DNA of 64,000 nucleotides from Chloroflexota bacterium (GTDB lineage: Bacteria; Chloroflexota; UBA11872; VXOZ01): assembly GCA_965221905.1 (NCBI GenBank), contig OZ244922.1:1152001-1216000 (forward strand). The letters run 5' to 3'. Positions 10,647 to 49,840 of this stretch are shown piece by piece. A program made the position numbers and the translations under genes. Positions within the stretch are counted from its first letter, which is position 1. Each line of letters begins with the position of its first letter. The notes beneath the pieces are model-generated. The model searched no databases and was not told where the DNA came from. It was given only the letters and a program-made list of their open reading frames with translations.

Positions 10647-10868
10647 GTGGTGCTCCTTCGTCTCTAACTTTGATGTCACGCGTGCCCCGTTCTGGATGCG
10701 ATGGGAGGCGGCATCCTTCAGGTTGACGCCAGGCCGTGAATATAAGAGTTTACTTAGTACAGAGTATACCCGCTGCGTGTCGGCCTCCGTCCGCATTGTT
10801 TTGAGGAAAGGAAAAAACTGCGTATGCGTTCTCGATCTCTTGGAAGAGGCCGCGTGACGACGGAGCTC

Positions 10869-43630: not shown

Positions 43631-43662
43631 ACCCTAGATTTCTCGCTTCGCTCGAAATGACA
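43631..43662 (-). repeat. Solo copy of the GIY-YIG-flanking repeat
   Basis: Reverse complement TGTCATTTCGAGCGAAGCGAGAAATCTAGGGT vs TGTCATTCCGAGCGCAGCGAGGAATCTAGGGT at 48889-48920. Confidence 0.85.
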
Positions 43663-47319: not shown

Positions 47320-48675
47320 CTAGCCAAACCCACCCAGCGCTGTCACGAGGCGGTCTATATCCTCCCGTGTACTCAACTCGGTAACGCAGACCAGCATGTG
47401 ATGATCGAGCTCATCACGCACCCGCCCAAGGTCGTAGCCGCCCAGCACGCCGTGTTCGAGCAAGTGCTCGTTGACGCTGCTCACCGGAGCGGGACAATGT
47501 ACTACAAACTCTTTGATATAGGGCCCGGGCGACGTAACGGAGAAGCTGGCCAGCGCGTCTATCTCCGCAGCGGCATAGTGCGACTTCGCAAGGCAGAGAT
47601 CGGCTTTCTTGCGCATGCCCGCCGGGCCGAGCCAACTGACGTTGATCGTGAACGCCAGAGCTGCCAGCGCTTCATTGGTGCAGATATTTGAGGTGGCCTT
47701 TTCACGGCGGATGTGTTGCTCACGGGCTTGGAGGGTCATCACGAATCCGCGCTTGCCTTCCAGGTCTTTGGTCATGCCGGAGACCCTGCCGGGCATCTGG
47801 CGCATGTACCGTTTGCGTGTCGCGTAGAGGCCCAGCCGGGGGCCGCCAAAGGCGGGCGGCAGCGCCAGACTGTGTCCCTCGCCGGTGACAATGTCGGCGC
47901 CGTACTCACCGGGCGGCGTCAGGATGCCGAGGGCGACCGGATCGGCGCTTACGACCAGCATGGCGCCGTGGGCGTGAACGTCTTCCGCGACCTGTTGGCA
48001 CTCATGTACCCAGCCGAGGAAATTTGGCACCTGCACGGCAACGCAGGCTGTATCCTCATCGATGGCGGCGCTCAACGCCTCCCAGCGATCATGGAACATG
48101 CCGTCATCGTCCAGGGCAAACACCGGTACGCGCACGAGGGTGAGTTCGCGACCCTCGGCGTAGGTCTCCAACACCTCGAGGGTGGTTGGATGGAACGTGT
48201 CCGGTACAACAACCTTGGAACGCTTTGTGATGCTGCAAGCGGTCAGCACCGCTTCCGCGGTGGCGGTTGCCTCGTCGTACATGCTGGCGTTCGCCACGTC
48301 CATACCGGTGAGCACGCAGACCATACTCTGAAATTCGTACATGGCCTGCAGAGTGCCCTGGGAGAGTTCGGGCTGGTAGGGCGTATAGCTTGTCAGGAAC
48401 TCGCCCCGCAGAATCAAGGCATTTACGATGCTGGGAACAAAGTGATTATAGCTGCCGGCGCCCAGAAAGCTGGGCATTTCCTGCACATTGCGGTTCAGCC
48501 CGGCGAGTGATTGCATGTGTCGGATGACTTCCGGCTCGGCCATGCCGGGCGGCAGGTCCAGGGTCGGATGGCGTACATCCTCGGGGATATCGTGAAAGAG
48601 GTCTGCGCTGCTGGCTACGCCAATCGCACGCAACATTGCCTCTTTGTCTTCGCTACTGTGTGGTACGTAGTCCAT
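47320..48675 (-). CDS. gcvPA: Glycine dehydrogenase (decarboxylating) subunit 1
   Basis: YTPYQPELSQG, NASMYD, REQHIRREKATSNICTN; start set to MDYVPH. Confidence 0.97.
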   Translation of the reverse strand: MDYVPHSSEDKEAMLRAIGVASSADLFHDIPEDVRHPTLDLPPGMAEPEVIRHMQSLAGLNRNVQEMPSFLGAGSYNHFVPSIVNALILRGEFLTSYTPYQPELSQGTLQAMYEFQSMVCVLTGMDVANASMYDEATATAEAVLTACSITKRSKVVVPDTFHPTTLEVLETYAEGRELTLVRVPVFALDDDGMFHDRWEALSAAIDEDTACVAVQVPNFLGWVHECQQVAEDVHAHGAMLVVSADPVALGILTPPGEYGADIVTGEGHSLALPPAFGGPRLGLYATRKRYMRQMPGRVSGMTKDLEGKRGFVMTLQAREQHIRREKATSNICTNEALAALAFTINVSWLGPAGMRKKADLCLAKSHYAAAEIDALASFSVTSPGPYIKEFVVHCPAPVSSVNEHLLEHGVLGGYDLGRVRDELDHHMLVCVTELSTREDIDRLVTALGGFG

Positions 48676-48887
48676 AGCACCTTCTTCATTAAAGCAAGAA
48701 TTGTCAGACTTCCTAAAACTCGCGCTTGTAAACAAACTACCTAAAGTAATTCTGCATCCTTGTCCAACCCGTAAGCTCTGCGCAATTCAGTTGCGAGGCA
48801 ATGCAGTGGCACGCGGTCTAAGAGAACTTTCTGAGTGAACAGTAGTTTGGTCTCACGTCGCCGAAATCGCGTGGAGTTTCGCTTCAT

Positions 48888-49279
48888 ATGTCATTCCGAG
48901 CGCAGCGAGGAATCTAGGGTCAAATTGCGCACTCTCCAAACCAGTCCAGCGCCAAATCCTTCCATCGGGGATTTGCAGACTCGACGAGCGCGATCTTCTT
49001 GCTCCTTCGCCACTTCTTGATCTGCTTCTCTCGCGCTATCGCCGATTCTACGTCTGACGTCTCTTCATAGTAAGCTAGCCACGTCAAATTGTACTTCCTT
49101 GTGAAACCCGGAACGAGTCTCTGCCTGTGCTCATGTATTCGACGAAAGAGATCGCTGGTGACACCTAAATAGAGCGTTCGGACACTATTGGTCAGGATGT
49201 ACACGTAGTAAGACCTGTCTTGACTCTTGGCCAAGTTCTTTAGATTCCTCTCTCCGCTTCGCTCCGTTCGGAATGACAT
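48888..49279 (-). mobile_element. Putative ~390-bp element: GIY-YIG nuclease gene bounded by inverted palindromic repeats
   Basis: ATGTCATTCCGA..GAGGAATCTA at both ends in inverted orientation, abutting the CDS, located between gcvH and gcvPA. Confidence 0.65.
48920..49234 (-). CDS. Stand-alone GIY-YIG nuclease
   Basis: YYVYIL..LYLGVT.DL.RR..EH, FTRKY, AIAREKQIKKW.R..K, NP.W.DL; TTG start at 49234 or in-frame ATG at 49279. Confidence 0.92.
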   Translation of the reverse strand: MAKSQDRSYYVYILTNSVRTLYLGVTSDLFRRIHEHRQRLVPGFTRKYNLTWLAYYEETSDVESAIAREKQIKKWRRSKKIALVESANPRWKDLALDWFGECAI

Positions 49280-49444
49280 GGGGAAAGTAGCTCTCTTACT
49301 TTCGCCAACTCGGTTCAATCTAGGCGCCGTGACGGATCTATGATCTTGGTATTTCACTTAAGGACCACAAGTTTCGCGCAAGCCCTGTAAACTCGCGGGC
49401 TTTAGAAACTTCCTGGGGCCGCACTTTCAACAACCAACCCTGCC

Positions 49445-49840
49445 CTAGTGCGCGCCGGACTCTGCCAGCACTTCCTTGTATCCCGCGGCGTCGAGCAGCG
49501 TTGCCCATTCTTCATCCAGGTTTGAAGGTCGGATCTTGAGCATCCATCCTTCATCGTACGGGGAATCGTTGACCAACTCCGGATTATCGGTAAGCCCCTC
49601 ATTCACCTCCACAATCTCGCCTGCAATCGGCGAGTAGAGATCGGAGGCAGTCTTCACGGACTCTACGACGCCGAATTCTCCCATTATCTCCACCTGGGTG
49701 CCGGGCTGCGGCAACTCCACGTAGACAATGTCGCCGAGTTCGCCCTGGGCGTAATCGGTGATGCCAACTACGCAGAGGTCGCCCTCCATGCGCGCCCATT
49801 CGTGTTCTTTGGTATAGCACAACTCATCCGGTATGTTCAT
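49445..49840 (-). CDS. gcvH: Glycine cleavage system H protein
   Basis: HEW, GITDYAQ, VESVKT (lipoyl Lys), PY..GW. Confidence 0.97.
   Translation of the reverse strand: MNIPDELCYTKEHEWARMEGDLCVVGITDYAQGELGDIVYVELPQPGTQVEIMGEFGVVESVKTASDLYSPIAGEIVEVNEGLTDNPELVNDSPYDEGWMLKIRPSNLDEEWATLLDAAGYKEVLAESGAH

Follow-up and report, generated by a model that had tools for sequence, protein, structure and literature searches.

What is a small nuclease gene doing when it lies, within a few base pairs on either side, between two inverted copies of a repeat that is dispersed through the same genome? This question is raised by a locus in a 64,000-nucleotide stretch of a Chloroflexota bacterium genome (GCA_965221905.1, contig OZ244922.1, positions 1,152,001 to 1,216,000; hereafter the window, whose own numbering is used below). 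A preliminary description of the window had proposed a REPtron-like autonomous element, in which a GIY-YIG enzyme rather than a RAYT maintains or spreads the repeats.

The gene itself is as had been described, an intact GIY-YIG gene between gcvH and gcvPA. It runs on the minus strand from a TTG at 49234 to a TGA at 48920 (48920..49234) and encodes 104 residues, with Pfam GIY-YIG (PF01541, E 3.6e-14) as the sole domain and with all residues that are near-invariant in the alignment of homologues (Y12, Y22, G24, R32, H36, E69, K73, and N88). Its neighbors on the same strand match Pfam GCV_H (gcvH, upstream, 49445..49840) and GDC-P (gcvPA, downstream, 47320..48735). Homologue alignments favor the TTG as the predicted start over an in-frame ATG at 49279, inside the upstream hairpin, which would lengthen the nuclease by 15 residues. 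This ATG stands at the beginning of that hairpin (49241-49279), whose 3' arm has a purine-rich run about 11 bases upstream of the TTG. The hairpin may therefore either hide a ribosome-binding site or add the 15 residues. One contig from a public RNA-library run covers 48964-49329, which does not demonstrate transcription. The predicted structure of the nuclease (pLDDT 68) matches GIY-YIG folds, the best being UPF0213 BH0048 (E 6.5e-4); an NCBIfam search with the 104-residue protein assigned no family, and a search for a solved Ssn structure found none.

The closest published relatives are the Ssn nucleases. In the portions of Chenal et al. (2025, PMC11893778) drawn on here, these are single-domain cd10448 (GIY-YIG_unchar_3) proteins whose genes are flanked by GTC-tagged hairpins (NTS/SRM)—on both sides in 42% of homologues—and which cleave single-stranded DNA alone, on the strand with the tag and a few bases 5' of the hairpin. 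Chenal et al. present them as the first site-specific nucleases restricted to single-stranded DNA; four enzymes were tested, all from Neisseria or Wolbachia. The same portions already raise the likeness of Ssn to IS200/IS605 transposases and REPs and the hypothesis of a domesticated mobile element. Gene–hairpin pairing, hairpin-specific cleavage of single-stranded DNA, and the analogy with REP/RAYT systems are therefore already in print. Across 99 columns, our protein shares 48% of its residues (pairwise E 4e-31) with an NTS-flanked N. gonorrhoeae homologue, which served as a stand-in for N. meningitidis SsnA. Its similarity lies within the limit used for the family (E<1e-10 over >75% of the SsnA length), as does its size (<150 aa with one GIY-YIG domain, here 104 aa with PF01541 alone), and its gene lies between oriented GTC-tagged hairpins. 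Y12, Y22, and E69 align with the catalytic Y6, Y17, and E64 of SsnA, and the 47-residue spacing from Y22 to E69 is that from Y17 to E64. On sequence grounds, the nuclease gene with its hairpins is a member of the Ssn family. What it shares with published members is a single GIY-YIG domain of about 100 residues, the catalytic Tyr/Tyr/Glu, two inward GTC-tagged hairpins, and many dispersed hairpin copies. It differs from them in its hairpins, which are tagged TGTC and in which a tandem G.A mismatch follows the 5-bp arm, and in its protein, in which the loop between the two tyrosines is one residue shorter and K79 replaces a tryptophan. The published SRM pattern, which is a degenerate search aid and not the definition of the family, matches neither flanking repeat at 0-1 mismatches, the left repeat at 2, and the right repeat not even at 3.

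The build of the hairpins deserves a closer description. The upstream copy (49241..49279, minus strand) is a long form that ends 6 bp before the start codon, and the downstream copy (48888..48916, plus strand) is a short form with a GCGCAGC core, placed 3 bp after the stop codon. Both point inward, their positions and gaps are exactly those given in the preliminary description, and their outer 12 bp do form a perfect inverted repeat. The upstream hairpin consists of a GTC tag, a 5-bp arm, GA/GA, an inner stem, GGA/GGA, and a GCGAAGC mini-hairpin core. Tandem GA and GGA/GGA can form sheared pairs in DNA. The motif GCG(N/NN)AGC is present in 47 of the 58 GA-bulged copies of the genome; according to the part of PMC13037366 used here, it folds in DNA into a mini-hairpin of high stability whose closing pair is a sheared G-A. 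ViennaRNA found no stability beyond shuffles in the two flanking hairpins (z +0.7 and +1.0), so their folding would rest on non-canonical G.A pairs, which that model does not score.

Similar hairpins recur in the window and throughout the genome, in two sub-types. A strict scaffold occurs six times in the window, against 0.00 expected from 100 shuffles, and 163 times in the 3.52-Mb genome, while looser scans of the window found about eight hairpin copies away from the gene. The earlier count of about ten nuclease-less copies in the window is therefore roughly right in number, but the assumption that they are the same repeat holds for a single one, a gene-less GA-bulged hairpin with compensatory arm changes at 43661 (43636..43661, minus strand). 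All other window copies away from the gene are of a Watson-Crick (NTS-like) sub-type, three of them at 25588, 26232, and 27779 (25588..27803, minus strand) and further ones at 10868, 22243, 40615, and 55014. Genome-wide there are 58 GA-bulged and 156 Watson-Crick copies, and 10 gene-less inward heterodimers of a long and a short form resemble the nuclease unit. The statement that the window has no transposase agrees with our scan, which found none among 52 of the 67 window ORFs of at least 170 aa plus gcvT, gcvPA, and gcvPB; transposase genes are present elsewhere in the genome.

With more than 200 such hairpins in the genome, common REPs might simply have come to lie beside an unrelated repair nuclease. 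The flanks of homologues, which the preliminary description had singled out as the place to look, make this exceedingly improbable and indeed already refute it. From the best 80 of 585 related loci in a genome collection, six with short flanks were dropped, and in the remaining 74 a generic test for inward GTC-tagged hairpins found one on both sides in 50, versus 4 of 739 control windows of the same loci (at least two of the single-side matches in this test are chance matches in the gene start). The specific GA form—GTC, a 5-bp arm, GA...GA, the complementary arm, and C—was present in inward orientation on at least one side of the gene in 59 of the 74; 48 have it upstream, 48 downstream, and 37 in both places. 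The control rate was 21 of 2908 windows. The published SRM pattern was found on both sides in 1 and on either side in 3 of these 74 relatives, again drawn from the best 80 of 585. These counts support a gene–hairpin pairing that is real and general. Two further points speak against coincidence: the type of hairpin follows the protein clade, and in the same genome a RAYT-like gene and a second small GIY-YIG gene (both described below) are each flanked by their own, different repeats.

The GA-bulged hairpins of relatives have 11 distinct arms, and the arm pairs are complementary in 122 of 132 cases in which complementarity was not imposed, versus a shuffle mean of 28 and maximum of 42, with the qualification that the copies are not independent. 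Loci of this type span 16 named phyla. On a protein tree from a quick search (149 proteins, 96 columns, few firm branches, with a sample drawn by a GA-type query), hairpin type is clustered, requiring 13 changes for the GA type versus 49.1 when shuffled and 5 versus 23.5 for the Watson-Crick type. Since the branches that place the Watson-Crick group within the GA group are unstarred, the tree gives no direction of change. The best protein marker is position 79, with K in the GA type (76 of 82 proteins) and W in the Watson-Crick type (23 of 25). Related loci also occur in a viral collection (four, of which one is full length) and in a plasmid collection (32 records, 31 of them typed as non-mobilizable). 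Among the matches listed for the GA-type hairpin strings in open-licence text, no paper was evidently related by title. As far as sequence comparison defines it, this is a new and widespread Ssn sub-type, with a differently built, GA-bulged hairpin that the SRM pattern misses.

How the unit has behaved over time can be read in the genus. Ssn homologues were found in 13 of 16 congeners, and among the 15 in which gcvH was found, 10 have the unit at gcvH-gcvPA, each time with the upstream hairpin at the orthologous place (10/10). Three of the 10 have a stop codon in the gene, and in G006 the catalytic glycine is changed and an IS481-like element (L005:404-1405) has inserted into the downstream hairpin, duplicating 5 bp. 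The unit is absent from the site in the other five congeners, two of which have a 9-bp junction there. The search for an empty gcvH-gcvPA site suggested by the preliminary description yielded none at base level in these five genomes, whose GcvH proteins are 81-89% identical and whose spacers are unalignable. The alternative offered there for the terminal AT, a 2-bp target duplication, has to be abandoned because this dinucleotide reads alike on both strands and the bases that flank orthologous units are different ones. More generally, a flanking direct repeat is absent in 43 of 55 units, and eight have 2 bp only, mostly the self-complementary AT. Of the marks expected of an insertion sequence or autonomous transposon, neither a target-site duplication nor a precise empty site was seen. 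Contig joints that skip the gene and keep both hairpins occur in four public runs. We rejected the reading of these joints as excisions because the intervening letters resemble the spacers of gene-less dimers elsewhere, and none of the joints listed in the public runs removes the whole unit.

Close relatives share the hairpins, yet the DNA directly outside them differs sharply from one genome to the next. For example, G004 has a GcvH identical to that of our genome and a different upstream spacer, which the more distant G003 shares (L001-L004, from G000, G005, G004, and G003, respectively). These mosaic flanks suggest that recombination occurred at the hairpin edge. Outside the genus, the unit is found in other genomic contexts, with different loci in G023 and G026, and in G026 the sole two strict copies of the genome are the pair that flanks the gene. 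Congeners also have a second, Watson-Crick-flanked Ssn paralogue at several loci, which was not found in our genome. At the sites of the Watson-Crick units of G005 and G015, our genome has other DNA or is too diverged, with no precise empty site. By eye, such a gene adjoins an IS30-like element at a rearrangement breakpoint relative to our genome (L193-L194 in G004, L192 in G005), and in G004 it lies between two inverted IS30-like copies, across the contig origin. Tandem duplicates of Watson-Crick-type Ssn genes are seen in four genomes (L021, L022, L028, and L200).

Recent movement of the hairpins was traced by comparing filled and empty sites with our genome at 55 dimer loci (20/20 in G005, 25 loci with 26 of 27 dimers in G004, and 10/16 in G003) and at all 28 single sites of G005. 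Clean empty sites numbered five among the dimer loci and three among the single sites, the others being filled, replaced, or not colinear. Seven of these eight lie inside MITEs and one is an indel between tandem copies; none of the eight is the insertion of a bare hairpin, dimer, or gene unit. Two are in elements of 264-265 bp with TGTA...TACA ends. Five are in elements of 206-267 bp with CGG..TTAG-type ends and duplications of about 8 bp, which we take to be IS1595-like and which form a second MITE family with GA-hairpin dimers (L100, L106, L209, L221, L055; G000:C1:3053408-3053625). The autonomous form of the TGTA...TACA MITE is a 1061-bp IS481-like element with TGT...ACA ends and a single integrase-core ORF (NF033577, 206 bits, below the cut-off of 224). 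This element inserts right after the GTC tag and duplicates the 5-bp arm. Ends of the element or of its MITEs—which are 240-320 bp long, have hairpin dimers inside, and account for 35 ends in G000 (e.g., C1:3454481-3454722)—abut a GTC-tag motif in 32 of 35 cases in our genome and 55 of 58 in congener loci, where chance predicts 1.5%. No close copy of the IS481-like transposase was found in G000, G004, or G005, and nothing evidently on point for IS481/REP targeting appeared among the matches listed in open-licence text. IS481-family elements are thus both passenger carriers of hairpin dimers and neighbors that target hairpins, and are distinct from the nuclease unit. In G011, several hairpin dimers share longer flanks (L301, L305, L312, L318, and L321), hinting at a third MITE family in this 318-copy genome. 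Recent spread of the hairpins in the genus is at least partly passive, inside MITEs.

Does the nuclease nevertheless spread the repeats? The claim of an autonomous element that does so is unproven and partly contradicted: it is left unsupported because the unit is a syntenic resident of the genus, shows no target duplication, and was not found in the two most repeat-rich congeners, and because those recent repeat insertions that could be resolved lie inside MITEs of ordinary DDE transposases. A less demanding version gives the nuclease the part that a RAYT plays, here for CGTC/TGTC REPs: it would nick next to hairpins, and host repair would copy dimers, and occasionally the unit as a whole, elsewhere. 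We regard this as possible, if somewhat doubtful. The correlation of repeat copy number with the nuclease that had been proposed as a check is indeed seen across the phylum: in a tally by hand of 151 genomes, an Ssn match (some of Watson-Crick type) occurs in 16 of 25 genomes with at least 10 GA-type copies versus 7 of 126 with fewer, for which the Fisher p of 2e-10 is an overstatement because kin are not independent. In the genus, G010 and G011, with 300 and 318 copies the highest there, gave no Ssn to either a protein query or PF01541; nine of the 25 repeat-rich genomes likewise have no Ssn match. Copies are few (17, 20, and 30) in the three congeners whose gene is interrupted by a stop, compared with 49-96 where the gene at the locus is open, which again fits a nuclease that seeds hairpins. 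So do the gene-less heterodimers that mimic the unit, 10 in our genome and, in a sample of 30 of the 40 exact copies of G011, 22 (of which four lie near the two MITE ends tested, and two loci gave the same context), mostly away from those ends, as well as the occurrence of units at different loci in G023 and G026 and of the Watson-Crick paralogue at several congener loci. Against it stand the eight clean sites without a bare hairpin, dimer, or unit, the 43 units without a flanking direct repeat, and the chemistry of the enzyme. To our knowledge, GIY-YIG enzymes hydrolyse DNA and have no strand-transfer step.

Several of these observations would fit a different role, in which the nuclease is kept by the host as a restriction or clean-up factor acting on hairpin-bearing single-stranded DNA, whether incoming or a MITE/IS intermediate, while hitch-hiking and recombination alone would spread the repeats. 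In keeping with this, G010 and G011, where no gene was found, have the two highest copy numbers of the genus, and 19 of the 58 GA-bulged copies of our genome lie within 250 bp of MITE ends. Furthermore, SsnA reduces the integration of NTS-bearing transforming DNA, in the part of PMC11893778 relied on here. Such a role leaves unexplained why the gene is tightly bracketed in many phyla and why the G026 pair exists at the gene only, and the low counts in broken-gene genomes point the other way; it too is only tentatively put forward. Seeding of hairpins and restriction are not mutually exclusive.

The parallel with REP systems is instructive on both sides. In the sections of Di Nocera et al. (2013, PMC3733652) at hand, CGTC-tagged REPs have stems of 8-9 bp and loops of 4-5 nt, and no enzyme or transposase was found for them, which would leave room for a nuclease as RAYT equivalent. 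As characterized there, they have in common with our repeats a CGTC/TGTC tag, AT at the stem base, a short tail, and head-to-head heterodimers with conserved spacers. The families CGTC-2 to -4 may include some GA-type repeats. As in REPIN/RAYT systems (10.1101/2021.07.10.451892, in the part used), a non-jumping, vertically inherited enzyme gene is flanked by its own repeats and gene-less inverted dimers are dispersed. RAYTs differ in being HUH/Y1 transposases with a covalent intermediate and GTAG repeats, whereas our nuclease is a GIY-YIG enzyme. Measured against a REPtron, the locus has the shared position (one locus in 10 of 15 congeners) and the 10 gene-less inverted dimers in our genome; it lacks the HUH/Y1 enzyme, the Y1 gene of this genome being elsewhere. 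That gene is RAYT-like and lies between arrays of GTAG-tagged REPs (G000:C1:3327899-3328216, L188), the 12-base start of which has 77 copies in the genome. A second small GIY-YIG gene, 32% identical to the Ssn nuclease (G000:C1:490559-490861; L040, L202; relatives L203-L207 and L244-L279), is bracketed by an inward CCGTTCG..CTGAG..TGTCGAAG repeat, also with tandem GA, of which there are 166 exact copies in the genome. This repeat is found upstream in 6/6 and downstream in 5/6 genus loci. In metagenomes, 36 loci (25 distinct) gave 20 proteins with full flanks, 12 of which have the repeat on both sides, versus 3 of 378 controls. The second GIY-YIG clade is a branch separate from Ssn (SH-aLRT 100), UPF0213-like by resemblance only, and four strings of its repeat retrieved no paper in open-licence text. 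With the Ssn gene and its GA hairpin, this makes three enzyme–repeat pairs in one genome. A broader proposal would be that small GIY-YIG nucleases are the long-missing partners of non-GTAG REPs, with at least three clades each having its own hairpin code (Watson-Crick NTS, GA-bulged, and CCGTTCG-type), dimers being seeded by nick-and-repair without transposase chemistry and IS481-like elements parasitising the hairpins as landing sites. As a whole we consider this unlikely and offer it as speculation.

In our preferred reading, which builds on the observed family membership, pairing, covariation, synteny, and MITE carriage, the nuclease most probably acts on its GA-bulged hairpin as SsnA does on its target, with a cut in the tagged single strand immediately beyond the unit, and its gene persists by vertical inheritance despite frequent loss. 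That the nuclease cleaves, where and on which strand it does so, and what role it has are here inferred by analogy. A hairpin copy that becomes single stranded during replication or repair or in incoming DNA would be read only on its GTC-tagged strand. The hairpin recognized by the GA sub-group would consist of the 5-bp arm, the tandem G.A mismatch, and usually a GCG(N/NN)AGC cap. The enzyme would then cut a few bases 5' of the tag, as SsnA does, and since the two hairpins point inward each strand would be cut once, immediately beyond the ends of the unit. A single arrival at gcvH-gcvPA in the genus (or a single arrival followed by several losses) would account for the unit's place there. Transmission since then would have been vertical, as for RAYT genes, while the DNA beyond the hairpins turned over quickly and the unit was lost time and again. 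In the longer run, such units would move to other loci and other hosts.

These findings matter in three ways. First, published counts of SRMs and of flanked genes understate the system. Second, the question of who spreads CGTC REPs can be put more precisely, because carriage by MITEs must be subtracted before the nuclease is credited. Third, the GA-type sub-group offers new specificities and, in the swap between K79 and W, a way into how a domain of 100 residues reads a hairpin.
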